64,000 bases of DNA from a bacterium (GTDB lineage Bacteria > Patescibacteriota > Dojkabacteria > GCA-016699595). Positions 2,328 through 62,179 of this stretch are shown here, piece by piece (position 1 is the first letter of the stretch; each line of letters starts with the position of its first letter). The notes under the pieces are model-generated. The model saw only the letters and a list, made by a program, of their open reading frames with translations, was not told the DNA's origin and did not search any database. A program made the position numbers and the translations under genes. The stretch lies in contig CP064982.1 of assembly GCA_016699595.1 (NCBI GenBank), forward strand, positions 572,340 to 636,339, read 5' to 3'.

Positions 2328-3431
2328 ATGCCCCAGAACAATCAAATTAGTGCTTTGCAAAACAACACCCAAGCGGGTTCTACAAATCTACCCTTTGTAG
2401 GTAACTTAAACAATGATCTTCAAAACCAGAATTCCCTAAATTTGCCAGAAAATGATGATTTTTATACTGATTATCTACAGTTACAAATCCCTCAGGAAGA
2501 GTATCTTGATCACAACGGTAACGATTTGACAAAGTTTGAAAACAATAGGTTTCTCAGAGAAAGTCCTGAACTCCAGAAATATACTAATTTATTGATAGAC
2601 CTTCAAGACGGTACATATTTTGGAAAAAAGCTTACCTCGGAAGATGAGATGAGCCAACTCTGGGAGCAAAGGTATTATGGAGAGCAAAACAATCAACAAC
2701 AAGATCAAAAACTTTCTAAAGATAACAGTACTATATTTGGAATTCCTAGTTCACTAATTGATCAAAACAATACTTCAAATAATTCCACTATTAACAAATC
2801 AGATCTTGCTGGGATATTTCAAAATTATTTAAATTCAAATCCAACAAATGTAAGTACAGATAACCCTAGCGAAGAGATATTTGTAGAAGATATAGAAGAT
2901 ACAGATTTGACAGGTATTGATTATCCTTCCAATTTTGTTGACCCAAATTTACTCAGCAATTCACTTAGTACAAAGTTCACTGCCAACAGCCACCCTAATA
3001 GTGGCTCCACTACGACTAACTCAAGAAGACCGGAATCTATAGGAGCTTCTGCACAAACAACTGCAAAAGAAAATTTACAAAAAGAAGTAGATACAAATAT
3101 TGAATCACAAGTCGAAAAAATAAAAAGTGAAATCAAAGAAGAGATTACAAACGAAAGTAGTAGATCGAAGACTTCCAATACTATAAATAATAAAGACAGT
3201 GCCGAAAAAGAATCCAAAGATCTGACCAAAACAGTAGAGAGTTTGATAGGAAGTATAAAGCTCTACGGATATACATTGCCTAGCAGTGCGATAAATAAAG
3301 TAGCTAGATCAAAAGATCCTAAAAACCTCTACAAAAATCTAAACTCTCATTCTGCAAAATCTTGGTTGCTCGCACTTGCAGGCAAGCTTGCATTACAGCA
3401 AAACGAAAAAAGCAGACAACAGAAGAAGTAG
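2328..3431 (+). CDS. hypothetical low-complexity N/Q/S/T-rich protein
   Basis: 367-aa ORF with no recognisable catalytic motifs. It has long Asn/Gln/Ser-rich stretches and an acidic/lysine-rich C-terminal part. Confidence 0.5.
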   Translation: MPQNNQISALQNNTQAGSTNLPFVGNLNNDLQNQNSLNLPENDDFYTDYLQLQIPQEEYLDHNGNDLTKFENNRFLRESPELQKYTNLLIDLQDGTYFGKKLTSEDEMSQLWEQRYYGEQNNQQQDQKLSKDNSTIFGIPSSLIDQNNTSNNSTINKSDLAGIFQNYLNSNPTNVSTDNPSEEIFVEDIEDTDLTGIDYPSNFVDPNLLSNSLSTKFTANSHPNSGSTTTNSRRPESIGASAQTTAKENLQKEVDTNIESQVEKIKSEIKEEITNESSRSKTSNTINNKDSAEKESKDLTKTVESLIGSIKLYGYTLPSSAINKVARSKDPKNLYKNLNSHSAKSWLLALAGKLALQQNEKSRQQKK

Positions 3432-3497
3432 ATATACAGGAATATTCCATCGGAATTTCTGGCACAAAATTCATCAGAAAGCATTCTTTGATGATTT

Positions 3498-4454
3498 TCA
3501 ATTTTTACTTGACTTCTCTTTTTTATCAGTTTTGGCAGCCTCTGGATTCTGTTCAAGCCATTGATCCTTCAACCATTTCAAACCTGCTTGTTGCATTGCA
3601 ACATTTTGATAGTACAATCTCGTTCTTTCATCTATACCTTCTATCTGATCAAAGTTAGGAATGTCTAGGTTTTCTTCCCTTACTATCTGTGAGAGTAAAA
3701 TCATTACCGGCAAATAATCTCTAACTTCCTTCTCCCATTGTGCCTCCAATTCTTCAAAGGTCAACTTTTGAGATTCTAAATACTGTTCTTTTGTCAAACC
3801 TAAATCATTTAGTTTCTCATCAAAATGTATTCTTTGGTGATTAACTTCAAGCGACACAGGGTAATCAAGGGCTTCATACTCAGAAGCTTGCAACACTTCC
3901 TGCAAAAGTTCAGAATTGAACCTTTCTTCTGATTCTCTCACCTTTGCTAAAGTAAGACGAGATTTGACTTCATCTGGACTTACATCAGTTAGTTTATTTT
4001 GTTGGATATATTGTTCTACCTCTGAGTCACTTACATCTTCAGCATTTTGTGAGGCACTTACTTGCACATTTTTCATGTCCGGTAACTTGATATACGGGGC
4101 ATAGCCATATGCAATTAATATTTTTAGTTGTTTTTTGTCTTGAATACTTTTCTGAATGTCATCATCAAATTTGATTTCAGGCTCAGTTATTGGAAGTATT
4201 TTTTCCTCGGTAAGCACATATCTATAAGCTTCATCTATGATTATTTGTAGTGCCTCCATAACTATTTCCCTACCGTACTGAGATTCAATAATTGACAAAG
4301 GAACCTTGCCTTCTCTAAAACCGTCTAACTTCAAGTGTTTTGCCTTCTTCTCCAAAGCGCTAACTTTTGCATTTTCAAACAAATCATATTGTAAAGTTAT
4401 ATCGAAAGTTATTTTCGAGCCACCGTTATTTGTTTTGGTATATTGTATATTCAT
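3498..4454 (-). CDS. tig: trigger factor (short form, apparently lacking the PPIase domain)
   Basis: N-terminal KLDGFREGKVPLSIIESQYGREIVMEALQIIIDEAYRYV matches the trigger-factor ribosome-binding domain signature (GFRxGKVP). At 318 aa, with no FKBP-like segment, it is shorter than the usual ~430 aa. Confidence 0.7.
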   Translation of the reverse strand: MNIQYTKTNNGGSKITFDITLQYDLFENAKVSALEKKAKHLKLDGFREGKVPLSIIESQYGREIVMEALQIIIDEAYRYVLTEEKILPITEPEIKFDDDIQKSIQDKKQLKILIAYGYAPYIKLPDMKNVQVSASQNAEDVSDSEVEQYIQQNKLTDVSPDEVKSRLTLAKVRESEERFNSELLQEVLQASEYEALDYPVSLEVNHQRIHFDEKLNDLGLTKEQYLESQKLTFEELEAQWEKEVRDYLPVMILLSQIVREENLDIPNFDQIEGIDERTRLYYQNVAMQQAGLKWLKDQWLEQNPEAAKTDKKEKSSKN

Positions 4455-11639: not shown

Positions 11640-14600
11640 TTATTTCACATCTGCTATTGTTTGGAAAGATTTCTCAAGTTGAACCAATCTTTCTTCAAGA
11701 TCATGGATTTTTTGATCTTGTTTCTCAATTTTCTCTTCTGTATTGAGAACTTTGGATACAAGCACTTTGAAACTTGATTGCCCGTTAGCTAAAGTATCAA
11801 TTTGAACTTGTTGTTCTTGGACTGCATTTATCAAAGCATATATAATCGCATTTGAATCATACCTGTAGTAACCATCTTCTCCAAGACTAATCGTCCATTG
11901 GCCTAGTGCTGTTTGATTGATGTCTTGAGCTATAAGTCCAACATAACTTTTGTCATTATCTGGTGCATATATACTTTTGCCATTATATTTAAATGTCTTT
12001 GGATCAATTTTCATAATAGCATCTAGACCTATATCAAAATCTTTGATATCCTTTTTCAACCTTTCGTCAGACAAAACAGTCCAAGCACCTCCTCCAATTT
12101 TTTCTGCTGTTCCTGCACTTCCTACAAATCTTGCTACTTGAGTTCCATCTACAAAGAAGTTTAGCTCAGCATCAGCTAATGATGTGATTCCAGAGTCTGT
12201 ATCGCCTATACCATTGGCACCAAATACAATTCCAGATGTTTGTGAAGAACCTGAAACTATAGAACCTCCAGCTAATTGCAATGCTCCTTCTATCTTTGCA
12301 GATCCTGATACATGCAGCTTTTGTGTAGGTGAGGTAGTGCCTATACCAACATTGCCCATAATGTAAGAACTATTTGTGCCATTCACATGTAGTATGCCCT
12401 TTATATAGGAATCTCCAGCAGTACCATCTACTTCAAATTTGAGTACACCATCGTTTCCATAAAAAGCCCAACCTTGTGTTGCAGGAGAGACCCATACATC
12501 CGTATATCGACTAATGCCATCGAAATGTGTCATTATTGGCATAGAAGTTACATAATGATTTGCATCAACAATATATAATTTGGAATTTAGCGATAGCCTA
12601 ACATCTCCCATGACATCCAATTTGTAACTAGGTGTTGTCCCAATTCCGACTCTACTATTGACATCATCATAGTAAAGACTAGAGTTAGACTTCCATACAC
12701 TTGTATTTGCGTCATAATATAGTGTTTGTCCTTCAGTTGCTGTAGGTAGTGTTGGTATCGTTGTCCATGCTGTTCCAGTACCTGTTGTTTTAAGGTATTG
12801 TCCATTTGTACCTGCTACATTACTTGAATCATACAACGCTCCTTCTACCCTTGCAGATCCTGATACATGCAGCTTTTGTGTAGGTGAAGGAGTCCCTATA
12901 CCGACAGAACCGGTGCTTATATTTGTATTGACACCATTTATACCTGTCCCAAAAATCAAGTTACCTATACTAAGCTGATTTGATCCATCCAATATTGGGG
13001 CATCTATATTATATCCAATTAATATATTCCTAGAACCAGTAGTTTCTAACCTACCTGTAAAGTATCCAAGAAATACATTGTCGGCACCGCTTGTCAAAGT
13101 TTTTCCATTCATATAACCTATTAATGTATTGTTTCCACCTGTAGTCAAAGATAACCCTGATTGATATCCGACTAAAGTAGTATTACTGAAAGTTGATAAA
13201 CTATCTGTACCCCTGCCTGACTGAAGTCCAATTGCCACATTTACTTGACCAGTAGTAAATCTCAAAGCTTCACCACCTATTGCCGTATTATTTCCACCTG
13301 TAGTTTTAAGTAATGTATAATGACCTATAGCCACATTATTGTTTGTAGCACTGGAGTTATTGTACATTGCACCATTGCCGATTGCTATAGTATCAGTTAT
13401 AGTGGTAGACGATCCGAACAATACATTTGCACCGATTGCCACATTTCCAGTACCAGTTTTAACTGAGCTCAAGGCATTATAGCCTATTGCAGTGTTGATA
13501 TAACCAGTAGTGATCGATGTACCAGTATTATTTCCCATCAAAACGTTGAACTTGCCAAAACTACCTCCTGTCAGCGTCGTGCTATCCCCTGCATTATTCC
13601 CTGCAAAGAGATTCGATGCGTCATTAGATGTAATCTCAAGAAGTGCAATGCCTGCGCTATCTTGAAATTGCATCAAAGCCTTGTCTACGGTTTGAGTGGC
13701 ACTTGCTTTTATAATTACTTGCTCAATATTTTCATTTCCTGCTACGAGTAACTTAGCCCCTGGTGTCGGTGTCCCAATTCCGACTCTACTATTTACATCA
13801 TCATAGTAAAGACCAGAGTTAGACTTCCATACACTTGTATTTGCATCAAAATATAGTGTTTGTCCTTCATTTGCTGTAGGTAACAAAGATACTCCTGGAG
13901 CTAATACAGTCCAAGCTGTACCATTTCCAGTACTACTTAAGAACTGTCCATTTGTACCTGCTACATTACTTGAATCATACAATGCTCCTTCGATCCTTAC
14001 AGATCCTGATACATGCAGCTTCTGTGTAGGTGACGGAGTCCCTATACCAACAAAACCGGTGCCCGAGAAGGTTAAGCTATTGGTATTCAGATTTATATCT
14101 GTATTCTTCGTAAGATTCCCTCCTAGTTGGAAGTTAGATAGCGTAGATTGCGTTAAACCATTGTCAGAAGTGTACTTTGTATCTATATCAGCAACACACT
14201 CAAAACTAGATCCATTCCAAGAAAGTTTTTGATCTGATAAACAAACAGGTGAATCTACAGAAATAGTTCCAGTAGATGATATAGGTCCACCAGTAAGCCC
14301 AACTCCTGTAGAGAGACTTGTCAATGTGCCATTAGTTGTATTACTACATATCCAAGAGCTCGTCGTTAAGTCATATCTAAGAATCTGAGTATCACTGCAA
14401 GAATTTAGTGAGTATCTTACAGTATTTACTGCTATTACTTCAGCTTTTAGTGGACCTACTGCCGAGAAAGTAACCATTGAGCCTGGATTTATATTTTGTG
14501 AATTTGAGCCGTCAGTTACGACAAAATAACTATCCTCACAATCAAAACTTACTCCGCTCCATGTAAGCCTTTGGTTTGTTGCGCATGTATGTGCATCAAT

Positions 14601-16574
14601 TTGAAATGTAGTTCCAATCAAACTTACTCCATTTCCTGCATTATATGTAGTATCATTATCTGGTAATGTAATAGTATAAGTTGAACTATCTGACATAGTC
14701 AAATTCAAAGTTCTTAAAGTTCCACCAGATGTAACTGCACTTGTTGAAATCGTTGCAGAAGACAAAAACTTATCTGCCGGTAGCATTATAGAATTTACTA
14801 TGGAGTGACCATTTGTTCCAGTTATGGCTAATGTTCTAGTTTGAGAGTCATAGCTCAAATTTTGTGAATCTGCATCAATTATACTTTTCGATAAACTAGG
14901 AGTGCCATTCTGTCCCGTTAAATTGATTGTATGAGTGATTGCCCCAGTACCAGAATCTTGAATAGTCAAATCATCACTATATTTATCAAAATCATTAAAT
15001 GAAGTGCATGCCCATGAACTTGAATTGTATATTAAAAATTCTCCATTTGAACATGGGTTCAATGTAACTATAGGATTTTGCCCATTACTTACACCTATCA
15101 CACCTGAACCTGTAACTGACAATGTACCTGCATTCGAAATCTCATTTGATGAATCTATCCCAATACCATTACCTGCACTATAAATATACTTTGATTCAGG
15201 AATGCATACCCAATTTGAACCGTTGTACACGAGAAGTTCACTTGTGCTACAAGCTTTGAGACTAAAAACATTCGAGTTTAATGTTATACCATCACCAGAA
15301 GCATAGGTTGTATCGGCATCAAGATCTAGGGAACAAATCCAATCACTTCCATCATACTTCAATATCTCTCCACTTGAGCAAGGCTTAATAGAAAATACAT
15401 TTGAAGATAAAATTAAACCTGAACCAGAAGTGTAAATATCATTATCATCAGGAATATTTAGAGCAATATCAGGCAATCCTCCTGAACGAGTTAATGTCAA
15501 AATCCTATAACCTGATTGCAATTCAGACAAAGTAGCTCCTGTCAAATATAACTCTGCAGGCAATGCCGGCAGTATTATCGAACCACCATTTGTCAATGAG
15601 ACAATGTTTCCATCAATTGTTAATTCCTGTGAATCTGTAGGAATAATAACTGAATTTCCACTCGATAATGTCAAAGTGCCATTATTATAGTTTAGGCTTT
15701 GCAAAACTTGATTTGGCAAAACTATAGAATTGCCATTTGATATAGTTATTGTATTGCCAATAATTTTCAAATCTTGACTATCTTTGCTAAATTTCAAAAT
15801 CATATTTGCAAGGTCGAGTTGATTCCCTCTTTCAATGCTTAAATTTGAACCTTCTAAGCTGATCTTTTGATTGTCACTAGCAAAAGCGGCTTCTACCTCT
15901 GCGCCTTGCAGATAACTTCTAATAACGCTTTCTAGAAACTCCGTTCTTTGTTGAATCAAGTCGCTTTTCTCGTCATTACTCAAGAATTTACCTACAGACA
16001 AATCTTGAATCAAATTGAGATTTGATTTTGTACCGATAAATTCACTGTACACTATATCTTTGCATCCAAGCGATGTTGGGTAAAATGAAATATCATTTTG
16101 AGTACCAAAAAATCCTTTCAAATTTGCAATAAATCCTTGTTGAATAAGCCTACGACTGCAAGCAACATTGTCAAATGTGCCTTTTGCATCATCGTGTCCT
16201 TGACATGATGAAACTTCGTTTCCATCTTCAGACATGGTTGAATAGCAGAGCTGCAAGTATGACTTTTTTGGCAAAGCAAAGATACCCGGATTAATGTTTA
16301 TATCAAATTTACCATTCCTGATTTCAACATTATCAAAATCCCAACTTTCTATTAGTCTTGCATCGGAAGAATTTTTATCAAATACTAAGATTCTGAAATT
16401 GGTTGCTTTTGTTTTATCGTTTCCAAAGTCACCATTAATCGTTACTTTGAGTGGTTTTGCAAAAGTTAATAAAAAAAAGATTGCTACTAGTAGAGCAAGA
16501 AGCAATAATTTAACAGAAAGGCGACTTCTCGCATTTGCAATATTCAATTTTTTTGAATTAATATAGTTTGCCAA
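11640..16574 (-). CDS. giant (1644 aa) tail-fibre-like surface protein with a C-terminal S74-type intramolecular-chaperone domain
   Basis: N-terminal signal/TM segment LSVKLLLLALLVAIFFLLTFA. Three VGIGTPSPTQKLHVSGS-(R/K)-EGAL modules. Seven or more CxxxxLxYxGSxWxC repeats. Gly/Asn/Thr-rich beta-helix-like tracts. C-terminal SDERLKKDIKDFDIGLDAIMKIDPKTFKYNG...VGLIAQDINQ...GYYRYDSNAIIYALINAV matches the peptidase S74 / endosialidase chaperone domain, and is followed by a coiled-coil tail. Confidence 0.8.
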   Translation of the reverse strand: MANYINSKKLNIANARSRLSVKLLLLALLVAIFFLLTFAKPLKVTINGDFGNDKTKATNFRILVFDKNSSDARLIESWDFDNVEIRNGKFDININPGIFALPKKSYLQLCYSTMSEDGNEVSSCQGHDDAKGTFDNVACSRRLIQQGFIANLKGFFGTQNDISFYPTSLGCKDIVYSEFIGTKSNLNLIQDLSVGKFLSNDEKSDLIQQRTEFLESVIRSYLQGAEVEAAFASDNQKISLEGSNLSIERGNQLDLANMILKFSKDSQDLKIIGNTITISNGNSIVLPNQVLQSLNYNNGTLTLSSGNSVIIPTDSQELTIDGNIVSLTNGGSIILPALPAELYLTGATLSELQSGYRILTLTRSGGLPDIALNIPDDNDIYTSGSGLILSSNVFSIKPCSSGEILKYDGSDWICSLDLDADTTYASGDGITLNSNVFSLKACSTSELLVYNGSNWVCIPESKYIYSAGNGIGIDSSNEISNAGTLSVTGSGVIGVSNGQNPIVTLNPCSNGEFLIYNSSSWACTSFNDFDKYSDDLTIQDSGTGAITHTINLTGQNGTPSLSKSIIDADSQNLSYDSQTRTLAITGTNGHSIVNSIMLPADKFLSSATISTSAVTSGGTLRTLNLTMSDSSTYTITLPDNDTTYNAGNGVSLIGTTFQIDAHTCATNQRLTWSGVSFDCEDSYFVVTDGSNSQNINPGSMVTFSAVGPLKAEVIAVNTVRYSLNSCSDTQILRYDLTTSSWICSNTTNGTLTSLSTGVGLTGGPISSTGTISVDSPVCLSDQKLSWNGSSFECVADIDTKYTSDNGLTQSTLSNFQLGGNLTKNTDINLNTNSLTFSGTGFVGIGTPSPTQKLHVSGSVRIEGALYDSSNVAGTNGQFLSSTGNGTAWTVLAPGVSLLPTANEGQTLYFDANTSVWKSNSGLYYDDVNSRVGIGTPTPGAKLLVAGNENIEQVIIKASATQTVDKALMQFQDSAGIALLEITSNDASNLFAGNNAGDSTTLTGGSFGKFNVLMGNNTGTSITTGYINTAIGYNALSSVKTGTGNVAIGANVLFGSSTTITDTIAIGNGAMYNNSSATNNNVAIGHYTLLKTTGGNNTAIGGEALRFTTGQVNVAIGLQSGRGTDSLSTFSNTTLVGYQSGLSLTTGGNNTLIGYMNGKTLTSGADNVFLGYFTGRLETTGSRNILIGYNIDAPILDGSNQLSIGNLIFGTGINGVNTNISTGSVGIGTPSPTQKLHVSGSARVEGALYDSSNVAGTNGQYLKTTGTGTAWTTIPTLPTATEGQTLYYDANTSVWKSNSSLYYDDVNSRVGIGTTPSYKLDVMGDVRLSLNSKLYIVDANHYVTSMPIMTHFDGISRYTDVWVSPATQGWAFYGNDGVLKFEVDGTAGDSYIKGILHVNGTNSSYIMGNVGIGTTSPTQKLHVSGSAKIEGALQLAGGSIVSGSSQTSGIVFGANGIGDTDSGITSLADAELNFFVDGTQVARFVGSAGTAEKIGGGAWTVLSDERLKKDIKDFDIGLDAIMKIDPKTFKYNGKSIYAPDNDKSYVGLIAQDINQTALGQWTISLGEDGYYRYDSNAIIYALINAVQEQQVQIDTLANGQSSFKVLVSKVLNTEEKIEKQDQKIHDLEERLVQLEKSFQTIADVK

Positions 16575-23510: not shown

Positions 23511-25592
23511 ATGTCAACATTTTCAGATCTCAAAAACAAATTTATATACTTCTGGCAGTCAAAAGGCGCAAAAGAGATACCAGGATTATCGCTTGTTCCA
23601 CAAGGTGATTCTACTTTACTTTTTGTCAATTCTGGTATGTTTCCACTTGTGCCATACTTACTTGGAGAAAAACATCCACTCGGAACTAGACTTTGCAATG
23701 TCCAGAGATGCCTTAGAACTGAAGATCTTGAAGATATCGGAGATACAAGACATTTAACCTTGTTTCATATGATCGGAAATTGGAGTTTAGGAGATTTTTT
23801 CAAAAAAGAACAAATACCGTTTGTACTTGAGCTTTATGTTGAGCATTTTGGACTTGATCCAAAACGAATATATGTTTCAGTTTTTGAAGGTGACGAGTCA
23901 GCTCGAAGAGACGAAGAATCTATCGAGCTTTGGAAGCAAGCTTTTGCAAAATATGGAGTAGTTGCAGAGTATAATCCAGATCCATATTCAATCTCAGAAA
24001 CTCTAGAGGGAAATGCAAACTTTAGAATATTTAGTTATCCCAAAAAGAAAAATTGGTGGACAAGAGGTGAAGTTGCTGGAGAACCTGGAGGTCCAGATAG
24101 TGAAACATTTTATGATATGGGAACTCAAGCTGAAGAATATGAAGAGAAATTACATATAAATGGAGATAATGGGAGATTTGTAGAAATTGGAAACAATGTT
24201 TTCATGCAGTATAAATATGAAGTCCCCATTGCTAAGGGGGATACGGCAACGCCGAGTGGGTTTTGGTTAGAAATGCATAAGAAAAATGTAGACTTCGGAG
24301 GTGGTTTGGATAGAATTGTGATGTGCGCAGAAAACAAGTTTGATATATTTGAAACTACACTTTATTGTGAAGTTATCGATTATCTAGTTACTAAAACTGG
24401 TATTCCGTATAAAACTACTTCCTTTGTGAAGGTGGCACAAGGTGACGGAAGAGGTTTTAAGCGAAGTTATAGAATAATTGCAGATCATATAAAAGCTTCA
24501 GTTTTCCTACTTGCTGACGGAGTTTTCCCAAGTAACAAAGATCAAGGCTATATCCTGCGAAGATTAATTCGTAGAATGATAGTACAAGGTTATAATCTTG
24601 GAATTAAAGATAAGTTTGTGAAAGAAATTGCCGAGATAATGATAGGTTTGAACTCAGATCAAGATCAAATTATTTCAAATAAAACCAATATAATTTTAGA
24701 ACTTGAAAAAGAAGAAGATAAATTTAGGGTGACATTAGAAAGTGGAATAAAAGAATTTGAAAAATTGATCCTTCCTTTTAGGAAGGGGAACCACAAAGTG
24801 GTGGAAGGTTTAAATCCAAATATTGCTCTCTTACAAACGAATACTAACGAAATAGGATTCTCTGGAAAAGACTTATTCTATCTTTATGAGTCTTTCGGGT
24901 TTCCAATTGAGCAAAGTTTAGAATTATTGAAACAAAACAATGTTGATTTTGATGAAAGTAAGTTGAAAAGCGAGTTTGATAATGCAAAACTAGAACATTC
25001 CAATTTATCACGCACTAATTCTGAGCAAAAATTCAAAGGTGGACTTGCAGACAATTCAGAGATTGTAACTGCACTCCACACTACTCACCATCTTTTACTC
25101 GCTGCACTTCAAAAAGTTTTATGCTCAAAAGATATACACCAAAAAGGTAGTAATATAACTTCTGAAAGACTTCGAATTGATTTCAATTTCGATAGAAAAT
25201 TAACTACAGAAGAATTAGCAAAAATAGAATCCCAAGTTCAAGAGTGGATTGATCAAGGATTACAAGTTGAAAGACTAGAAATGAAAAAAGAAGAAGCAGA
25301 GAAACTTGGTGCAGAGCATGAGTTTGGAGCTAAGTATCCAGATATGGTTTCAGTTTATAAAATATTTTATCCTTCCTGGAAGGAAGGTGTCACTCAAAGC
25401 CCGACGGAAGGTTTAACCTCCAGTCTTTCAGACAGCCTCCTACAAGGAGGCATCATAAGTCTTGAGTTTTGTGGCGGTCCTCATGTCGCAAATTCAAAAG
25501 ATATAGCTAAATTTGGAAGTTTCAAAGTTTTGAAAGAAGAAGCAAGTTCATCTGGAATTAGAAGAATAAAGGCTGGATTGGTTAGGCAGTAA
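23511..25592 (+). CDS. alaS: alanyl-tRNA synthetase lacking the C-Ala domain
   Basis: LVPQGDSTLLFVNSGM, RCLRTEDLEDIGDTRHLTLFHMIGNWSLGDFFK, editing-domain HTTHHLLLAALQKV, and C-terminal CGGPHVANSKDIAKFGSFKV. 693 aa. Confidence 0.9.
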   Translation: MSTFSDLKNKFIYFWQSKGAKEIPGLSLVPQGDSTLLFVNSGMFPLVPYLLGEKHPLGTRLCNVQRCLRTEDLEDIGDTRHLTLFHMIGNWSLGDFFKKEQIPFVLELYVEHFGLDPKRIYVSVFEGDESARRDEESIELWKQAFAKYGVVAEYNPDPYSISETLEGNANFRIFSYPKKKNWWTRGEVAGEPGGPDSETFYDMGTQAEEYEEKLHINGDNGRFVEIGNNVFMQYKYEVPIAKGDTATPSGFWLEMHKKNVDFGGGLDRIVMCAENKFDIFETTLYCEVIDYLVTKTGIPYKTTSFVKVAQGDGRGFKRSYRIIADHIKASVFLLADGVFPSNKDQGYILRRLIRRMIVQGYNLGIKDKFVKEIAEIMIGLNSDQDQIISNKTNIILELEKEEDKFRVTLESGIKEFEKLILPFRKGNHKVVEGLNPNIALLQTNTNEIGFSGKDLFYLYESFGFPIEQSLELLKQNNVDFDESKLKSEFDNAKLEHSNLSRTNSEQKFKGGLADNSEIVTALHTTHHLLLAALQKVLCSKDIHQKGSNITSERLRIDFNFDRKLTTEELAKIESQVQEWIDQGLQVERLEMKKEEAEKLGAEHEFGAKYPDMVSVYKIFYPSWKEGVTQSPTEGLTSSLSDSLLQGGIISLEFCGGPHVANSKDIAKFGSFKVLKEEASSSGIRRIKAGLVRQ
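24768..24812. repeat. copy 3 of a ~65-bp hairpin repeat family, in-frame inside alaS
   Basis: atccttcctttt-aggaagg-ggaaccac-aaa-gtggtggaaggttt: ccttcc/ggaagg arms plus an inner hairpin. It encodes LPFRKGNHKVVEGLN within the intact alaS ORF. Confidence 0.6.
25369..25434. repeat. copy 1 of the same repeat family, in-frame inside alaS
   Basis: atccttcctggaaggaaggtgtcactcaaagcccgacggaaggtttaacctccagtctttcagac. It shares atccttcct..aggaaggtgtc..caaag..gacggaaggtt..cagtcttt with the 33776 copy, and encodes YPSWKEGVTQSPTEGLTSSLSD. Confidence 0.65.
25510..25592 (+). repeat. direct repeat A (the native alaS 3' end)
   Basis: aatttggaagtttcaaagttttgaaagaagaagcaagttcatctggaattagaagaataaaggctggattggttaggcagtaa reappears at 27422-27503 with 4-6 mismatches. 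Confidence 0.8.
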
Positions 25593-25614
25593 TCTTAATA
25601 CATCATTTAAACAT

Positions 25615-26529
25615 ATGTCAATTCCAACACATTTACAAATAATGTTGCCTTTATTGAAGTTATATTCAGACAACAATATCCACCATAGAACAGATTTTAT
25701 AGATAAAATTTCTGATCATTTTAACTTAACCGATGATGAGAGAAAACAAAAAGTAAATTCAGGTTGGACAAGAATATCTGATAGAGTTGATTGGGCAATA
25801 ACATTCTTAAAATCAGCTAAATTAGTTGAATCACCTAAAAGGGGATATACAAAAATTACACGACGTGGAAAAGAATTATTAAAAACTGGAGTTGAATCTT
25901 TAGACTTAAATAAAATAAAGGAATTATATCCAGATGTTATGGAAACTGCCTTTTGGAATCCAGAACTAAGAACTTCAACAAATGCTACTGCTACAAATAT
26001 AAATAATGAAAACTATACACCTGACGAACATTTAGCTCAAATAGTTGAACAAAAGAAACTTACAATTTATGCAGAAATTGAAGATCAGATCAAAAGAATT
26101 TCTCCCAAAGCATTTGAAAAATTAGTTGTAAAATTATTAATTGCTATGGGTTATGGAACTGAGGAATTTAGTCAAGTTACTCAATATAGTAACGATGGTG
26201 GTATTGATGGAATAATCCAAGCAGATAAACTTGGTTTTAGAAAAATTTATGTACAAGCCAAAAGATATTTAAGCAACAATGTTGGAAGAACTGAACTTCA
26301 AAATTTTGTAGGTGCAATGGGTAAAGTTCACGAAGGAATCTTTATAACTACATCAAAGTTTAATAGTAATGCACTAGAGTATATCCGTGACATTTCGCAA
26401 AAAGTTATTTTGATTGATATAAACAAACTTGTTGAACTAATGCATGAATACAACCAAGGTGTTTCTGTTCGAGATAATATTGAAATAAAAGGAATAGATG
26501 GGGATTACTTTGATGAACTTGAATCATAG
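25615..26529 (+). CDS. mrr: Mrr-family type IV (modification-dependent) restriction endonuclease
   Basis: N-terminal winged-helix Mrr_N-like region. Catalytic core AFEKLVVKLLIAMGYG...SNDGGIDGIIQADKLGFRKIYVQAKRYLSNNVGRTELQNFVGAM...GIFITTSKF matches Mrr_cat (D-x-QAK). Confidence 0.8.
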   Translation: MSIPTHLQIMLPLLKLYSDNNIHHRTDFIDKISDHFNLTDDERKQKVNSGWTRISDRVDWAITFLKSAKLVESPKRGYTKITRRGKELLKTGVESLDLNKIKELYPDVMETAFWNPELRTSTNATATNINNENYTPDEHLAQIVEQKKLTIYAEIEDQIKRISPKAFEKLVVKLLIAMGYGTEEFSQVTQYSNDGGIDGIIQADKLGFRKIYVQAKRYLSNNVGRTELQNFVGAMGKVHEGIFITTSKFNSNALEYIRDISQKVILIDINKLVELMHEYNQGVSVRDNIEIKGIDGDYFDELES

Positions 26530-26644
26530 TCATGGCTCTACCTTGCCACCTTCACCTACGGACTTAGCGAAATTACCGAAATTGGCCTAAATCGATTTTT
26601 GCAAAATTATAAAGTTAATTCAGTTCAAGCTGATCATATAATTT

Positions 26645-27361
26645 TTGAATCTTCTAAATCGATTGATAAATAATCTAAATCAAGTTAATTCAAAGTCAAT
26701 ACTACTTAAAAAGACTTTCAGAATATATCTTAGTATTGATACTCAAACTGTTAGTAAGCCAAATTTTCAAAGTCTTGCTGAAAACTATTTTTCTAAAGCA
26801 ACAAAGATGAAAATTCACCGCACTTTACCAGAAACTGAATTTTGGTTTATAGAAAAGCAGTGCCACGCTTATATTGCTCAGAAAATTAGTAAAAAGCAAG
26901 ATTATCAAGATAAAAATGCAAAAGGGTAACTTTGAGAAGAGCTTTGCGTAATGATGAATTTGCTTGCAGACCTAAAACGAAGTGATAAAGTTTTGGATCC
27001 CTTTTCAGGAAGCGGTGCGATAACTGAAGTAACTTACAAATATTTTAAGGTTGAATATATTACTTCAATTGATATAAAACAAGGAACCGAACAGGACTTC
27101 TTCAAGTTAGATGAAAATCAAAAATTTGATAAGATCATAACTGATCCACCTTGGGGAAATGAACAAAAACTAGATAATGTAAGTAAGTTTTATAATGATT
27201 TATTTAACAAAACTAAAAAAATGTTAAATAATCAAGGTGAATTGATACTACTAACAAGTTTTAAGGTTAATAATATGCCAGATGAATTTGCGAAATTAAA
27301 AGAATATAATCTATCAGTTTCTGGCAAGAAAGCAAAATTGTATAAATTTAAATTAAAATAA
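26645..27361 (+). pseudogene. SAM-dependent (N6-adenine/N4-cytosine or UPF0020-type) methyltransferase interrupted by two in-frame stops
   Basis: The 26645-26929 and 26951-27361 ORFs are in the same frame, separated by ...GGG TAA CTT TGA... The downstream part carries motif I VLDPFSGSGA and motif IV DPPWG. Together they read as one methyltransferase split at 26929-26951. Confidence 0.5.
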
Positions 27362-27421
27362 TATGGCAAAATTTATTATTAATATTAACCCAAGTAATAA
27401 AGCTTAGTTTCTTAAGCAATT

Positions 27422-27503
27422 AATTTGGAAGTTTCAAAATTTTGAAAGAAGAAGCAAGTTCATCTGGAATTAGAAGAATAAAAGCTGGTTTGGTTAGATA
27501 GAT
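27422..27503 (+). repeat. direct repeat B (duplicated alaS 3'-end remnant)
   Basis: aatttggaagtttcaaaattttgaaagaagaagcaagttcatctggaattagaagaataaaagctggtttggttagatag. It would encode FGSFKILKEEASSSGIRRIKAGLVR*. Confidence 0.8.
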
Positions 27504-27569
27504 TAAGTCCCCAAATGCCCAAATGCTAGAATAGCTAACCACTATAATATGCTATTCGAATTTGATTTC

Positions 27570-27914
27570 CTACAGCCTGCCAACATTATCTGAAATTTCT
27601 GGGATTTGTTTTAACTTGGACACAATTTGTGCTGGTACGTCTTGATAATTAAATTCAACATCATCCCCTATAGGGATACGAAGAATTACAACTTGTTCAT
27701 CCGTTAATGGCGTTTTTCTTCTATTTGCAATTCTTTCAATAGCCTCTGGGGGAAGCTTCAATACGAGCATTCTTGAATCATCTTTTTCGGTTGTAATATC
27801 TAGTCCATATTTCATTGGTTCACCTTGAAAGCCAAAATAAACCTGTCTAGCTTGATTGGTAATAAAACTTTTTGTAAGTTTTTCTTGTTCAGACATTTTG
27901 TTAGACTCAATCAT
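27570..27914 (-). CDS. hypothetical protein
   Basis: 114-aa ORF with no recognisable motif. The likely start is the internal MSEQEK. Confidence 0.4.
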   Translation of the reverse strand: MIESNKMSEQEKLTKSFITNQARQVYFGFQGEPMKYGLDITTEKDDSRMLVLKLPPEAIERIANRRKTPLTDEQVVILRIPIGDDVEFNYQDVPAQIVSKLKQIPEISDNVGRL

Positions 27915-28036
27915 AAAATCAAATCCTACCTATTTAGGTAGCAAAGTAATTATTATTTGGATAAACTTAAATACATTTTACTCTTTCTTTTACAAATGTC
28001 AAGTTCTTTGAGATAATTTGATACTCAGTTACAGAT

Positions 28037-29515
28037 ATGAAAAAACTATACATTACTACAACCCTACCATATGTCAACGCAGAACCTCATATAGCTCATG
28101 CTATAGAGTTTGTCTTAGCTGATGCTATAGCACGCTACTACAAAGCAAGACTTAGTGACGATAATGTGTATTTCAATGTCGGAACGGATGAACACGGTCA
28201 AAAAATTTGGGATAAATCAAAATCAGAAAACCTTGACATACACGAATTTACCAAAAAATATTCGGATAGATTCAAAGAATTTTGCACAAGTTTTGATGTT
28301 GAATACTCTTTTTTTTATAGAACTAGCAAGGACTACCATTATCCAGTTGCTACTGCATTTTGGAATGAAGCGATGAAAAATGGAGATATTTACAAAAAGA
28401 AGTACAAGGGACTATATTGCGTTGGCTGTGAAAGTTTCAAACTAGACAAAGACTTGATAGATGGGAAATGTCCAGATCATGGGACAGAACCCATTGAACT
28501 TGAAGAAGAGAACTATTTTTTCAAACTTACAAAATATAGAGAACACATTGCAGATTATCTCCAAACTGAATTTGTCATACCTGAATCTGATAGAAAGTTT
28601 GCTCAAGAATTTATCAAAAACATCGAAGATATAAGTATTTCAAGAGACAAAGCTAAGTTAAGTTGGGGAATTCCTGTTCCCGGAGATGATACACAAGTTA
28701 TGTATGTTTGGTTTGATGCATTGTCAAATTATCTCGGATCACTATACTTTGGTTCAAAAAGTATAGATGATCACTTTGATATAACCGATGTCAGGGATTT
28801 GCGAGAAGAATTCTACTTTTTACAGCTTTGTGGAGCCGATAATGTAAGATTTCAAGCAATTATCTGGCAAGCGATGTTGATATCAAGTAAGATAAAATTC
28901 ACTGACAAACTCCTGGTTCATTCATGGATCTTAGGATCTGATGGTCGCAAAATGAGCAAAACTCTTGGCAATGTCATCTCTCCATTTGAACAACTTGAAA
29001 AGTATGGGAGTGAGGCAGTAAGATTTTTCTTCCTAGCCTGCATGAGTACAACTGGAAATGCAATTTATGATGAAGCAGGTTTTGTAGATCAGTTCAATTC
29101 TAGAGTTGCTGACAATTACGGTAATTTGCTTAATAGGGTGATTGTTCTGATAGTCAAAAACAATATCAAGACAAGTAATGTGACTAATGATAATTCAGCT
29201 ATATTGAATGAAGTAAATCAACTAAAAAATAGAGCTGAGCAAAAATTTGAAGAGTACAATATCTTTGAATATTCAGTGATCATCAATGACATTGCTACCT
29301 TGGTGAATAAGTATGTAACTGAAACTGAACCATGGAAGAAGGAGAAACCACAAGAATTCAAAACTGACGTCTTACTCAATTGCTTCAAAGCACTAAAAAT
29401 TATTACTGAACTATACAAACCCATAATTCCCAAAACTACCGCAAAAGCTGCATATATCCTTGAAAGCCTAAAGCCAGAGATTTTGGTTGCAAAAATTGCA
29501 AGAGATGAAAATTAG
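28037..29515 (+). CDS. metG: methionyl-tRNA synthetase (core enzyme, no C-terminal tRNA-binding appendix)
   Basis: YITTTLPYVNAEPHIAHAIEF (HIGH-type), zinc knuckle CVGCESF...CPDHG, KMSKTLGNVI (KMSKS). Confidence 0.9.
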   Translation: MKKLYITTTLPYVNAEPHIAHAIEFVLADAIARYYKARLSDDNVYFNVGTDEHGQKIWDKSKSENLDIHEFTKKYSDRFKEFCTSFDVEYSFFYRTSKDYHYPVATAFWNEAMKNGDIYKKKYKGLYCVGCESFKLDKDLIDGKCPDHGTEPIELEEENYFFKLTKYREHIADYLQTEFVIPESDRKFAQEFIKNIEDISISRDKAKLSWGIPVPGDDTQVMYVWFDALSNYLGSLYFGSKSIDDHFDITDVRDLREEFYFLQLCGADNVRFQAIIWQAMLISSKIKFTDKLLVHSWILGSDGRKMSKTLGNVISPFEQLEKYGSEAVRFFFLACMSTTGNAIYDEAGFVDQFNSRVADNYGNLLNRVIVLIVKNNIKTSNVTNDNSAILNEVNQLKNRAEQKFEEYNIFEYSVIINDIATLVNKYVTETEPWKKEKPQEFKTDVLLNCFKALKIITELYKPIIPKTTAKAAYILESLKPEILVAKIARDEN

Positions 29516-33775: not shown

Positions 33776-33846
33776 ATCCTTCCTCATAGGAAGGTGTCTC
33801 ACAAAGTGAGACGGAAGGTTATATCAATATCAGTCTTTACTGAACT
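33776..33846. repeat. copy 2 of the ~65-bp hairpin repeat family, intergenic upstream of hisS
   Basis: atccttcctcat-aggaagg-t-gtctcac-aaa-gtgagac-ggaaggtt...cagtctttac forms two perfect 7-bp hairpins. It is preceded by the inverted repeat cgtgtaa-tcgatagg-ttacacg at 33732-33753. Confidence 0.65.
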
Positions 33847-58964: not shown

Positions 58965-59414
58965 TTATTTAATATCATGTTTTACTATCATAGAAGTCTT
59001 AGCTATTTCCCACTTATTCTCTTTTACCCAATTTTCTGCTTGATTTACTACATTTGATAGTCCATCAAAGAACCCTTGTCCGCTAAAATCATTTGCATTT
59101 ATTGGGTCTACCACATACACATAGTCATTCTGTGTTCCTCCTTCAACTGGATCTATACTTAGAAATCTTCCTAAGTTTGGTACATATACTCTCGCTCCCA
59201 TTGTGATGAACTGTACACTGAAGTCTCTCTCAGTTCGTCTTAGTGCTGATCCACCATACTCATACTTGTCTGTACTTATTGTTACAGTTTCTCCAAATGG
59301 TCCATATCTATACATACTTCCACTTTCTTTTGATAGCAGGTGTCCCGTACTTGTATAGATACTATAGTCACTCGTTTGTTTCAGTGTCAAGAGTATTCCT
59401 CCTGGAAAACTCAC
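58965..59414 (-). CDS. RHS/YD-repeat C-terminal fragment (module 0) with a short tail
   Basis: YRYGPFGE (YD repeat), then ...[42 protein letters not shown], which is the RHS repeat-associated core terminus (compare RYYDPxxGRFxSxDPIGLxGGxNLYxY..NP.NxxDPxGL). A 35-aa C-terminal tail follows. Confidence 0.65.
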
Positions 59415-59449
59415 ATAACGATCGACTATGTTACCGCTTGTGTTTATTT

Positions 59450-59869
59450 TTAAACAATCCCAATGAACTTCTTAACAGATAACATGAGTTCATTTTGTTT
59501 CCTCTTATCTTGTTTCAGATGTTCCATTAATTCAGTCTCAGACATGTTATTAGCAAATTCAGTTATAATTTTATTTATTGCTGTCAACACATTAGCATTA
59601 ACCTGTTCAACACTCAATTTATCTGCATCAATATGTCCCTTTTCTTCAATGGAGACCCTATAGAAAATATCAAATTTTGAATTTGTCAAGGAAACGTTTA
59701 AAAATTTATATCCCCAATTTATGTAATAAATATTACCATATACTGATTTTTGTAGATTAATTATTTGACAAATTTGACCTAAGTTTTTATACCAATAATT
59801 ACCGTTTCTCTTGAATCCACAAGGTATCAATAAACAAGTTATTAATTTATTTATTTCAGTTTTTATCAT
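59450..59869 (-). CDS. putative immunity protein for toxin module 1
   Basis: 139-aa ORF immediately downstream of the module-1 toxin. Confidence 0.45.
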
Positions 59870-59881
59870 TGTGTTGTGAAA

Positions 59882-60520
59882 TTAATATAGATCCAATACT
59901 GTATTCCATTCTGATCCGGTTTGTGCTTCAAAAATAGATTGATAGTTATTTAATTGATTTATTCCTCTGGTTATTGACCACGGATTGTTTGGTTTTAGTT
60001 CAAAGATAGTCCTTGTATTAAAATCCACGAAATCAGGGCGTATACCTTGGATGCCTCTATATTCTTTATATAAACCTGCATCTGGATTATTTAGACCAAC
60101 CTTATATTCTAAATGCATTTGTTGTCCCCTTTGTAACGATGACTGTGTGTAACCTTCTGAAGATCCAGAATTGGATCCAATGTTTACTCCACTCCTCTGT
60201 TGACTATTATTTTTTTTCGTATTGCAACTTTTCAGAATATTGCATCCATCACCTATACTCTTTGCTACCCCTGCTGTTCCTGTCGCTGTTGTTGCTGCTG
60301 CATTTGTGTTAGATATTGCGTTTGATATTGACCTAACACTAGAATCTATTAACTGACCAGTTGTACGCACCATTTGTTTTCCGTGTGTAGTTTGTGTCAG
60401 GTATACTCCGCCAATAACGACAGCTGCTACTATTACAACTGGAGCAATAGCTATGCCAAAAATGACTATTGCAGCTTGTCCACTAAAGTCATTCCCATTC
60501 ACAGGATCAACTGGGTACAC
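59882..60520 (-). CDS. orphan RHS C-terminal toxin module 1 (putative PD-(D/E)xK nuclease tip)
   Basis: Starts inside the RHS core end (YPVDPVNGNDFSGQ). It continues with the conserved TM/pre-toxin block AAIVIFGIAIAPVVIVAAVVIGGVYL...GTAGVAKSIGDGCNILKSCNTKK, then a unique tail containing RPDFVDFNTRTIFELKP (D...E-x-K). Confidence 0.6.
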   Translation of the reverse strand: MYPVDPVNGNDFSGQAAIVIFGIAIAPVVIVAAVVIGGVYLTQTTHGKQMVRTTGQLIDSSVRSISNAISNTNAAATTATGTAGVAKSIGDGCNILKSCNTKKNNSQQRSGVNIGSNSGSSEGYTQSSLQRGQQMHLEYKVGLNNPDAGLYKEYRGIQGIRPDFVDFNTRTIFELKPNNPWSITRGINQLNNYQSIFEAQTGSEWNTVLDLY

Positions 60521-60575
60521 ATAGTCATTCTGTGTTCCTCCTTCAACTGGATCTATACTTAGAAATCTTCAATCA
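60189..60575. repeat. ~385-bp homology block (copy 1) shared by the toxin modules
   Basis: Near-identical to 61767-62135 and 63788-64000. Its last ~60 bp also match 59113-59172. Confidence 0.85.
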
Positions 60576-60632
60576 AGCCTATTATGATATATAGTGTTTA
60601 TTATAAGTCGGCACCACCCTTGTCGGTAAGTT

Positions 60633-60923
60633 CTAATGCTGATTTTGAAATCCAATATTCTTTAACTCTTTATGGCCCTGTAAAATTTTTGCTAACTTTT
60701 CTGATATATATGCTCCACCTCTGTTTCCAATTAGGAAAATATCAGTATTGTCACAACTGTTCATATCAACTATGATATTCAGAATTTTATTAATTCGATA
60801 ATATGCATCTGCATTTGCTCTTCCAGTTACTAGTAAAACAGTATAACCATCAACTTCTTCTCCCTTCATATCATATATTTTTATTGGAAATTCCTTCCAT
60901 TCGGTTATTTTATTATCTTTCAA
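60633..60923 (-). CDS. hypothetical immunity-like ORF, possibly a frameshifted remnant
   Basis: 96-aa ORF. A 36-aa ORF (MESDDIYYRKIEPPEDMIFDLKSGRDWGDLIHIGVQ) lies just upstream on the same strand in another frame (~60960-61070). Confidence 0.3.
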   Translation of the reverse strand: MKDNKITEWKEFPIKIYDMKGEEVDGYTVLLVTGRANADAYYRINKILNIIVDMNSCDNTDIFLIGNRGGAYISEKLAKILQGHKELKNIGFQNQH

Positions 60924-61157
60924 AATTTGTATGAATTTTTTCGAATATACAAAGGTTATTGCACTCCTATATGAATCAAATCTCCCCAGTCCCGACCGCT
61001 CTTAAGATCAAAGATCATATCTTCCGGTGGTTCAATCTTTCTATAATAGATATCATCACTTTCCATTAATTATTTCCTTCTCGATAAAGTCAATTGTATT
61101 TCTGAGTTTTTGAGTTTTCCATGTAATAGATATATTCTCATTTATCAATTGCAAACA

Positions 61158-61466
61158 CTATTCAACCGTTTCTATTGTTATAGTGGTGTTATTTTCGTCG
61201 AATAGTGTAACAGTTATTGGTTTCAATTGAATTTCATATATTAATTTCTTTATTTTCTGGTATGTTTCTACAATATTTTTGGAATAAAAATATAATAGAC
61301 ATAACCCATCATCATAAAAACCATGTCCATCATACTCATCACCAATTATAGTTTTTAATTTATCCTCTAGTTCATATATTTTTAAAGTATATGGCTTTAT
61401 TTCATTCCACGAACTCACACCGAAATTAAAAGAGATAACCATTGCTTGATCTGTATAATTTTTCAT
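61158..61466 (-). CDS. putative immunity protein for toxin module 2
   Basis: 102-aa ORF starting 9 nt downstream of the module-2 toxin stop. Confidence 0.45.
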   Translation of the reverse strand: MKNYTDQAMVISFNFGVSSWNEIKPYTLKIYELEDKLKTIIGDEYDGHGFYDDGLCLLYFYSKNIVETYQKIKKLIYEIQLKPITVTLFDENNTTITIETVE

Positions 61467-61474
61467 GATAATAA

Positions 61475-62179
61475 TTATTTAAAAATTCCAAAATCATCCC
61501 AAAACTGTGGGGCTATTGAGTTCCGTTGATTTGATAAGTTATTTAGACCGTATTCATTAATTTGTTGTTGCTCAAATATTCTTGACTCTGTAAAGGATAA
61601 GTTCGATCTTACTGGGGAATACGTTAAATTCTCTTTCCCAGTACCAAATGAACGAAGGTGCTCTGAAAATCTTTCCAATGGGTTTCTTGTTGTCCTTCCG
61701 ACATATTTAGTGGTTCCAGAAGCATCTTTCCCTTCATAGACAGTAGAGCTATCCACACTTCTAATACCACTCCTCTGTTGACTATTATTTTTTTTCGTAT
61801 TGCAACTTTTCAGAATATTGCATCCATCACCTATACTCTTTGCTACCCCTGCTGTTCCTGTCGCTGTTGTTGCTGCTGCATTTGTGTTAGATATTGCGTT
61901 TGATATTGACCTAACACTAGAATCTATTAACTGACCAGTTGTACGCACCATTTGTTTTCCGTGTGTAGTTTGTGTCAGGTATACTCCGCCAATAACGACA
62001 GCTGCTACTATTACAACTGGAGCAATAGCTATGCCAAAAATGACTATTGCAGCTTGTCCACTAAAGTCATTCCCATTCACAGGATCAACTGGGTACACAT
62101 AGTCATTCTGTGTTCCTCCTTCAACTGGATCTACCGAGAGGAATCTTCCGAGTATTGGTACATACATTCTTGCTCCCAT
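61475..62179 (-). CDS. orphan RHS C-terminal toxin module 2 (putative GIY-YIG nuclease tip)
   Basis: [42 protein letters not shown], then the same TM/pre-toxin block. The tail TVYEGKDASGTTKYVGRTTRNPLERFSEHL...ESRIFEQQQINEYGLNNLSNQRN fits the GIY-x10-YVG...R..EH...E...N pattern. Confidence 0.6.
   Translation of the reverse strand: MGARMYVPILGRFLSVDPVEGGTQNDYVYPVDPVNGNDFSGQAAIVIFGIAIAPVVIVAAVVIGGVYLTQTTHGKQMVRTTGQLIDSSVRSISNAISNTNAAATTATGTAGVAKSIGDGCNILKSCNTKKNNSQQRSGIRSVDSSTVYEGKDASGTTKYVGRTTRNPLERFSEHLRSFGTGKENLTYSPVRSNLSFTESRIFEQQQINEYGLNNLSNQRNSIAPQFWDDFGIFK

Follow-up and report, generated by a model that had tools for sequence, protein, structure and literature searches.

How did a restriction gene come to lie between two copies of the end of an essential gene? 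This question is raised by a locus in the genome of a member of the Dojkabacteria (Patescibacteriota; GenBank contig CP064982.1, positions 572,340 to 636,339), of which we analyzed a stretch of 64,000 nt, hereafter called the window; all coordinates are relative to it. The gene for alanyl-tRNA synthetase (AlaRS), alaS, is followed there by an islet with an Mrr-family type IV restriction gene and a broken methyltransferase gene, beyond which the last codons of alaS occur a second time. The original prediction, made from the sequence of the window, described this arrangement as the footprint of an integrative element that targets the alaS 3' end and regenerates it. We favor, at a probability of about 0.4, an import of DNA from a close relative, anchored by homology and independent of a recombinase, which would have brought its own alaS end along.

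Direct repeat of the alaS 3' end

The direct repeat of about 80 bp that had been proposed for the end of alaS was found to be real. Positions 25510-25585 matched positions 27422-27497 over 76 nt with 3 mismatches (96% identity). A pattern search allowing up to 3 mismatches returned exactly two sites, both of them repeat copies; 100 dinucleotide-preserving shuffles contained no such site, and none is expected by chance. In the frame of alaS, the likeness of the copies ran one codon past this core (AGG vs. AGA) and then broke at the stop codon. Copy 1 ended in GTT AGG CAG TAA (LVRQ*, stop codon at 25590-25592) and copy 2 in GTT AGA TAG (LVR*, stop codon at 27499-27501), the former being one residue longer than both copy 2 and the LVK* end of relatives. 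The repeat begins inside alaS and ends at the alaS stop codon.

Copy 1 (25510-25589, plus strand) comprises the functional last 25-26 codons of alaS, with the likeness to copy 2 fading over the codons at 25584-25589. Copy 2 (27422-27501, plus strand) is a displaced, untranslated alaS 3' end, which has its stop codon at the position usual for the alaS of relatives. Its predicted coding sense was confirmed, as it reads ...FGSFKILKEEASSSGIRRIKAGLVR* in the alaS frame; it belongs to no open reading frame (ORF), because an in-frame TAA (27421-27423) precedes it. The copies differed at 4 of 79 nt, comprising three synonymous changes and one V/I change, and their longest identical run was 43 nt. They were mutually closest among the available sequences (96% identity vs. 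85-87% to the relative L081 described below). The repeat cores enclose an insert of 1,836 nt, which ends in an AT-rich tail of 60 nt (27362-27421, plus strand); the first 15 nt or so of this tail could be aligned to the end of the L081 contig, and the tail stops at the joint 27421/27422.

An Rfam search of positions 25300-28100 at E ≤ 1 gave no match, and promoter-like and terminator-like sites in this interval occurred at background frequency. The possibility that copy 2 acts as a structured RNA or a terminator was dropped on these grounds.

Gene order in relatives and relative ages of islet and repeat

The sole informative relative was L081, a metagenome contig of 3,807 nt, the AlaRS of which was 76% identical to that of the window. 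This contig, JBEFFE010051244.1 of the assembly GCA_040364335.1, carried alaS, a spacer of 23 nt, an Mrr gene (307 aa), and an intact methyltransferase gene (302 aa) in the same order and orientation as the window, and stopped 15 nt past the methyltransferase stop codon. Contig ends lying within 8-15 nt of a gene end were observed in both of the closest relatives, just after alaS in L083 and just after the methyltransferase gene in L081; these ends would fit branching of the assembly graph at a polymorphic or repeated site downstream, and would fit low coverage equally well.

The GTDB species representatives provided 80 alaS loci, all with AlaRS identities of 49% or less (the nearest were Dojkabacteria/WS6-like Patescibacteria), and none of them showed synteny with the window or contained Mrr, the methyltransferase, or orf114, the gene to the right of the islet, near alaS. 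The same three genes were absent from the vicinity of alaS in 120 further metagenome loci, leaving the close relative L081 as the only one among about 200 other Patescibacteria alaS loci with Mrr and the methyltransferase nearby. In relatives with 64-68% AlaRS identity or 63-66% MetRS identity, the neighbors on both sides were different and synteny was lost; neither orf114 nor alaS adjoined metG, the MetRS gene, in the closest MetRS relatives (63-66%). An empty site, namely a single alaS end before orf114, was not found in the GTDB representatives, the JGI metagenomes, or the protein-indexed assemblies, among which no relative exceeded 76% AlaRS identity.

We then compared the divergence of the three genes shared by the window and L081. 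The proportion of synonymous differences (pS) was near saturation throughout, being 0.57 in alaS (corresponding to a synonymous divergence, dS, of about 1.06), 0.68 in Mrr, and 0.62-0.69 in the methyltransferase gene, with nucleotide identities of 81, 74, and 77%, respectively. The ratios of nonsynonymous to synonymous divergence (dN/dS) of all three genes were 0.08-0.17. The saturated pS together with these low ratios indicated that the Mrr-methyltransferase block co-diverged with alaS under selection. Since this cargo diverged at least as much as alaS, the gene order is either old or has not recently been exchanged between these lineages, and the cargo does not appear to be a recent foreign arrival.

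The repeat is much younger than this gene order, because an untranslated copy dating from the split from L081 would be unrecognizable, whereas the two copies differ at 4 of 79 nt. The same small difference implies that both alaS ends derive from very close relatives. Given the mismatch between these ages, a single ancient insertion that made both the islet and the repeat is an unfit explanation, unless the copies have been continually homogenized.

Cargo of the islet

The original prediction placed an Mrr-family type IV gene between the copies, which our domain searches bore out. The intact ORF at 25615-26529 (plus strand) encodes a methyl-directed restriction endonuclease of 304 aa with matches to the Pfam families Mrr_N (2.2e-24; residues 8-90) and Mrr_cat (2.3e-33; residues 159-276), and it matched the PADLOC model mREase_IV end to end (2.1e-61; residues 1-300 on profile positions 1-315 of 317). 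Its Mrr_N winged-helix N-terminal domain and Mrr_cat PD-(D/E)xK C-terminal domain resemble the enzymes of the Escherichia coli Mrr type; E. coli Mrr has the same two-domain architecture. The translation contains GIDG...VQAKRY, which we take to be the catalytic D...QxK signature of Mrr; no solved structure for this protein was detectable by sequence search. Against L081, Mrr had an overall dN/dS of 0.10; the ratio was 0.21 for the N-terminal half, which recognizes DNA, and 0.02 for the catalytic half, the former evolving about 10 times faster. Judged from its sequence, the gene is intact and under purifying selection, and its product is predicted to work as a methyl-directed restriction enzyme. 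A further Mrr homologue, the next closest at 58% identity, occurred on three contigs and had no methyltransferase neighbor.

In a separate public assembly (Logan), the same Mrr was split into P0127 (169 aa) and P0362 (127 aa) on a contig of 1,632 nt. Both were identical to the window Mrr except for the frameshifted tail of P0127, which is consistent with the loss of one A from the run ATCAAAAGAA (window positions 26088-26100, around Mrr codons 158-162). The split could reflect a sequencing error or a subpopulation with an inactivated Mrr.

The methyltransferase gene (26530-27361, plus strand) is a pseudogene with a UPF0020/RlmKL-like Rossmann domain and the motif DPPWG. Two stop codons had been predicted in it, and both were confirmed, one at 26927-26929 (CAA to TAA) and one at 26933-26935 (CGA to TGA); alignment to the intact 302-aa orthologue (L081, positions 2884-3792) raised the number of lesions to four by revealing the loss of 2 nt directly behind the ATG (about 26536) and a frameshifting deletion of 77 nt at about 26662/26663. 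The latter falls exactly between two TTGATAAA repeats of the intact orthologue (window positions 26655-26675; L081 positions 3010-3100) and has the appearance of a textbook slipped-strand or microhomology deletion. The surviving fragments retained dN/dS values of 0.08-0.17 against L081, from which it follows that the gene stayed under constraint through most of the period after the split and was inactivated recently.

As for the function of the lost enzyme, UPF0020/RlmKL-like was the sole Pfam family above the cutoff. The best NCBIfam matches were RNA m2G methyltransferases (Trm14, TIGR01177, and EmtA), all far below their cutoffs; models of DNA methylases scored no better, with the PADLOC mad2 and type II methyltransferase models at 42 bits or less. 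The PDB match was a "putative methylase" only (E = 0.005). No homologues were found in plasmid records, and phage records gave one weak match only. The protein thus seems to resemble RNA guanine-N2 methyltransferases at least as much as DNA methylases.

A cognate restriction-modification pair does not tolerate the loss of the methylase while the restriction gene is kept. Furthermore, Mrr enzymes attack methylated DNA, for which a linked DNA methylase would be a source of conflict rather than a partner. The islet does not show the co-inheritance of such a pair, as Mrr is intact and constrained and the methyltransferase gene bears four disabling lesions. The methyltransferase is therefore unlikely, as far as can be read from the sequences, to be the partner of Mrr, and we treat only Mrr as a defense gene, because keeping the nuclease while losing the adjacent methylase is the reverse of cognate restriction-modification behavior. 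Of the predicted defense module, Mrr was retained; the methyltransferase, being at least as similar to RNA methyltransferases as to DNA methylases, was not.

Search for recombinases and composition of the islet

We next examined whether the machinery of an integrative element could be found. No integrase lies between the repeat copies, as the original prediction had already stated. Recombinase or transposase families of Pfam were not detected in the window ORFs of at least 100 aa, a scan that excluded the giant ORF at 11640-16574, the ORF at 63479-63949, and ORFs overlapping larger genes. A search with a tyrosine-recombinase regular expression within 10 kb of alaS in about 200 Patescibacteria loci (2 Mb) and in the window gave nothing real; this pattern is crude and does not cover serine recombinases. 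A degenerate pattern for the AlaRS C-terminus, applied to viral contigs, had no match. The G+C content of the islet was 28.9%, corresponding to the 2.9th percentile of equal-sized windows. Taken together, the proposed footprint was supported insofar as there is an insertion-type joint at the alaS 3' end, with alaS intact and a second copy of its last 25 codons displaced; that an integrase drove the insertion was not supported by either of the recombinase searches.

Displaced alaS ends in other Patescibacteria

When all loci were scanned for the motif, two unrelated Patescibacteria, L057 and L168, proved to carry a second alaS end just downstream of alaS as well. The degenerate C-terminal pattern gave no locus with two exact matches among the 120 metagenome loci, and the two cases were obtained by more tolerant searches. 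In L168 (minus strand, about 1290-1075), the copies are about 105 nt apart, with hairpins but no genes between them. In L057 (3851-4090), they are 77 nt apart, again without genes between them, and the insert contains a perfect palindrome, CCCCAAAGGTTTCACCTTTG-ATA-CAAAGGTGAAACCTTTGGGG, which recurs 226 nt further on (about 4244-4288). In all three loci, namely the window, L057, and L168, the duplication ends on the right at the stop codon, and its left edge varies, lying 17-27 codons upstream. A fixed right edge with a variable left edge fits a limit of homology on one side and an illegitimate join on the other.

The differences between copies were mainly synonymous. The pS and the proportion of nonsynonymous differences (pN) were 0.57 and 0.08 in L057, and 0.39 and 0.08 in L168. 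Pooling the three loci gave 20 synonymous and 9 nonsynonymous changes between copies, which differs from neutral decay (P = 5.5e-7) as well as from the combination of one constrained and one neutral copy (P = 1.3e-4). In L057 and L168, moreover, each copy was as close or closer to the alaS ends of other genomes than to its partner; copy 1 of L168, for example, was 90% identical to L101 and 85% identical to its own copy 2. This synonymous bias and the non-sister relationship of the copies indicate that the copies of L057 and L168 diverged within working alaS genes of different lineages and were juxtaposed afterwards. Such a juxtaposition of alaS ends would be expected if imported DNA brings its own gene end. 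Short-range direct repeats as such are not rare, with about 30 independent pairs in 2 Mb, two of which are at alaS ends.

Origin of the islet

The analysis shows the repeat, what the genes are, the order that they share with L081, how old repeat and order are relative to each other, and the lack of recombinases in the scanned ORFs; from this we infer a donor, a direction of the event, and a recombination pathway as follows. The repeat would be a recombination joint between two alaS neighborhoods present in the clade, one of the type alaS-Mrr-methyltransferase, as in L081, and the other of the type alaS-orf114-metG. A donor fragment from a closely related strain or species would have carried its own alaS end together with the Mrr-methyltransferase block native to that genome, and would have entered through homology with the resident alaS, with no dedicated integrase. 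It might have done so either by one-ended homologous recombination with an illegitimate join at 27421/27422 (homology-facilitated illegitimate recombination) or by a single crossover of a circularized fragment. The incoming alaS end would have become the working gene end, and the resident end would have been pushed 1.9 kb downstream, where it is untranslated. The repeat would stop at the alaS stop codon because the homology of the two neighborhoods ends there. Import of this kind also accounts for the dispensability of an integrase, for a young repeat in an old gene order, and for the tiny gene-free inserts of the parallel cases, and appears to be the reading with the fewest extra assumptions. 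Both homology-anchored insertion and displaced orphan 3' ends have been documented (PMC3240628; PMC5361080).

Several points weigh against this import. Neither an empty site nor a donor-type genome close enough for a base-level comparison was found, and its direction and pathway are accordingly the conditional parts of the proposal. The L081 contig ends 15 nt past the methyltransferase stop codon, before any second alaS end or integrase could show. Homology-facilitated illegitimate recombination in its classical form usually deletes recipient DNA and does not duplicate it. The counts of the window alone (3 synonymous changes and 1 nonsynonymous change) have no statistical power, and the argument from selection is carried by L057 and L168, which belong to different lineages and have much shorter inserts. 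The enrichment at alaS ends is mild and only suggestive, with 2 of about 30 repeats against a share of about 0.8% of the sequence for alaS ends.

That the islet is the remnant of a site-specific integrative element, as originally predicted, is in our estimate a rather doubtful alternative. Such an element, using a tyrosine or serine recombinase and the last 76 nt or so of alaS as its attachment site, would have carried a copy of the gene end and regenerated alaS, its integrase having been deleted, acting in trans as in a cis-mobilizable element (CIME), or residing elsewhere in the genome. Direct repeats derived from the alaS end do flank the cargo and end at the stop codon, as they do in elements directed at gene or tRNA 3' ends, and integrase-less elements bounded by attachment sites at the 3' ends of housekeeping genes are known (PMC5704250). 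Repeated site-specific integration could account for the identical alaS-Mrr junction in L081, and a recent re-integration for the young repeats; even the synonymous-biased divergence of the L057 and L168 copies is what would be expected of an element-borne gene end under selection. The element is nevertheless disfavored by the missing recombinase, both in the islet and the scanned ORFs of the 64-kb window and, as far as the crude tyrosine-recombinase pattern reaches, within 10 kb of alaS in about 200 loci. Moreover, the inserts of L057 and L168 measure only 77-105 nt and are gene-free, the three cases do not agree in where the duplication starts on the left, the cargo is at least as diverged from L081 as alaS is and shows no sign of recent transfer between lineages, and the alaS-end motif occurred on no viral contig. 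We regard as unlikely a single insertion of the restriction-gene block before the split from L081 that duplicated a target of about 76 bp, the copies being kept alike by gene conversion. The islet has the operational features of the published insertions with long target duplication, with a restriction gene and a methylase homologue, an insert below 20 kb, a duplication above 30 bp, and no mobility gene, and the reported cases include some of type IV as well as some in which a repeat extends over a gene's 3' end (PMC2853133); that the window copies are mutually closest (96% vs. 85-87% to L081) also agrees with this account. This account requires, however, an ad hoc recurrent conversion of a 76-nt repeat over a time long enough to saturate synonymous sites, during which the block was never deleted. 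It offers no reason for a duplication that ends at the stop codon in three independent lineages and predicts neither the synonymous-biased differences nor the non-sister copies of L057 and L168, and the genome with a single-copy target, which is its defining test, was not found in the GTDB representatives, the JGI metagenomes, or the protein-indexed assemblies.

The event might also be read from the other side, with alaS-Mrr-methyltransferase as the native arrangement and the alaS-end fragment, orf114, metG, and the DNA beyond as the import, joined illegitimately at 27421/27422. This mirror image explains the same facts, is equally compatible with them, and departs from the favored import solely in the side that it takes to be foreign. 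The co-divergence of Mrr and the methyltransferase with alaS would agree with their vertical inheritance; of the three core mismatches, two show an ancestral-looking state in copy 2 (A, shared with L081 and L082), which also has the usual stop position. Nevertheless, the compositional outlier is the islet (G+C 28.9% vs. 32-35%) and not the right flank, and with no relative to polarize the event, we consider the mirror image quite unlikely. It seems similarly improbable that foreign DNA recurrently enters the genomes of Patescibacteria at the alaS 3' end, possibly in a targeted manner. In that case, an unrecognized mechanism not encoded beside the site would insert DNA together with a replacement for the final 17-27 codons, and the resident end would be displaced; the Mrr islet would be an example bearing cargo, and the 77-105-nt inserts of L057 and L168 would be empty or minimal forms. 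The chance that the second copy arose in assembly, from two strains mixed in a metagenome, is very small. The source is indeed a metagenome-assembled genome, and the Logan assembly of the same sequence breaks this region into a contig of 1,632 nt. A chimeric join at a shared repeat, however, would swap flanks and would not separate two diverged copies by 1.9 kb, with unique sequence abutting copy 2 on its left side; the identical stretches between the copies do not exceed 43 nt, the source contig is whole-genome-like (761,814 nt), and similar structures occur in the independent assemblies of L057 and L168. Misassembly is thus unlikely on structural grounds.

Comparison with known systems

Restriction genes that lie between long direct repeats at a gene 3' end form a known class, to which the islet belongs. 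Insertion with long target duplication is known from restriction-modification genes (Nobusato 2000; Furuta, Abe & Kobayashi 2010, PMC2853133). The alaS islet resembles these cases in being a small restriction-gene block that has no mobility gene, is flanked by direct repeats far longer than the target duplications of transposons, and has a repeat overlapping the 3' end of the neighboring gene; type IV examples exist as well (PMC2853133). It differs from them in three respects. The published cases are defined by a comparison genome with a single-copy target, and none was found for the alaS islet. The order of the islet is shared with a relative at saturated synonymous divergence, whereas the repeat is young. 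Finally, the copies of L057 and L168 accumulated their differences under coding constraint, which suggests that the alaS ends differ in origin and are not a duplicated target.

Integrative elements and derivatives of them that have no integrase (CIMEs as well as IMEs, or integrative and mobilizable elements) target and regenerate the 3' ends of housekeeping and tRNA genes (PMC5704250). In common with these, the islet has repeats derived from a conserved gene end that bound the cargo, an intact gene, and an identity that stops at the gene end. Unlike them, it showed no integrase, whether in the islet, in the scanned ORFs of the window, or, in about 200 related loci, beside alaS; it has no known excision product or empty site, and the left edge is not conserved among the three cases.

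The orphan 3' ends of Rhs, CDI, and T6SS loci, together with homology-facilitated illegitimate recombination and single crossover, offer a further comparison. In these systems, homology is anchored in a conserved upstream gene, a new gene end arrives on the incoming DNA along with downstream genes, the old end is displaced downstream and left untranslated, and no dedicated recombinase is needed (PMC3240628; PMC5361080). The alaS locus departs from this pattern in that its anchor is a housekeeping aminoacyl-tRNA synthetase, in that both ends encode the same protein sequence and not alternative toxin domains, and in that there is a single displacement without an array; the pathway at alaS is the one that we infer above. 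We conclude that the islet is a recombination scar of a known and fairly ordinary kind and not a new type of mobile element.

Genes and repeats around the islet

The alaS gene (23511-25592, plus strand) encodes an intact AlaRS of 693 aa (Pfam tRNA-synt_2c, 1.5e-94; tRNA_SAD, 2.8e-10) identical to NCBI QQR93387.1. The spacer between its stop codon and the Mrr start (25593-25614, plus strand) has 22 nt, compared with 23 nt for its counterpart in L081. A sequence scan of this spacer detected no terminator or promoter consensus, for which reason Mrr is probably transcribed by read-through from alaS. On the right, orf114 (27570-27914, minus strand), taken from the ORF list, is convergent with alaS and encodes a protein of 114 aa with no match in Pfam, NCBIfam, or PADLOC and no assigned function. 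It is followed by metG (28037-29515; tRNA-synt_1g, 6.6e-83), and these two genes are the predicted neighbors of alaS in an empty site. The other neighbor genes in the window are of housekeeping type, including secA, an ABC transporter gene, a gene for a VTT-domain protein, metG, tatD, and hisS.

A G+C-rich double-hairpin element of about 45 nt, ATCCTTCC-N4-AGGAAGG-TGTCnCACAAAGnnnGAC-GGAAGGTT, was present in three copies (24766-24812, 25367-25415, and 33776-33821). The first two lie in frame within alaS, inside window-specific insertions of 22 and about 28 aa that are absent from the closest relatives; they lengthen the AlaRS by about 55 aa. The third occupies the intergenic region that separates a Mur ligase gene from hisS and folds at -18.6 kcal/mol (z = -4.0). 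It looks like a small palindromic element that may insert in frame and be translated, and is reminiscent of the Rickettsia palindromic elements.

Two further regions of the window are rich in repeats. At 58965-64000 (minus strand), there is a polymorphic-toxin-like locus, in which one ORF ends in a Tox-REase-9 nuclease toxin domain (59882-60520) and other ORFs are of the immunity type (DUF4304 and WapI-like). A 300-nt segment of this locus occurs twice with 100% identity (60189-60488 and 61767-62066), and a third copy of 218 nt matches at 99% (63783-64000). The layout looks as expected of an array of displaced or orphan toxin ends, for which the logic of displacement is the one proposed for alaS. 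The giant ORF of 1,644 aa at 11640-16574 (minus strand) contains internal repeats of 73-154 nt with 86-96% identity at about 12279-14073.

Biological implications

The islet provides a small example of the shuffling of defense genes in the tiny and poorly understood genomes of candidate phyla, in which a type IV restriction gene located behind an essential gene is strongly selected while its neighbor decays. The islet is potentially reversible, since recombination of one 76-nt copy with the other would excise the block precisely and give back a normal alaS end. For restriction genes inserted with long target duplications, the repeats have been proposed to allow later amplification or release (PMC2853133). 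What the locus adds is modest, namely the mismatch in age between repeat and cargo and the recurrence of displaced alaS ends in other Patescibacteria. It also calls for caution, in that repeats around an islet are by themselves no evidence of an integrase-driven element or of a recent arrival from a foreign source. Whether the copies differ at synonymous sites or at random can help to separate imported gene ends from simple target duplications, and if displaced alaS ends prove to be common, they would provide a cheap marker of recombination between related uncultivated lineages.

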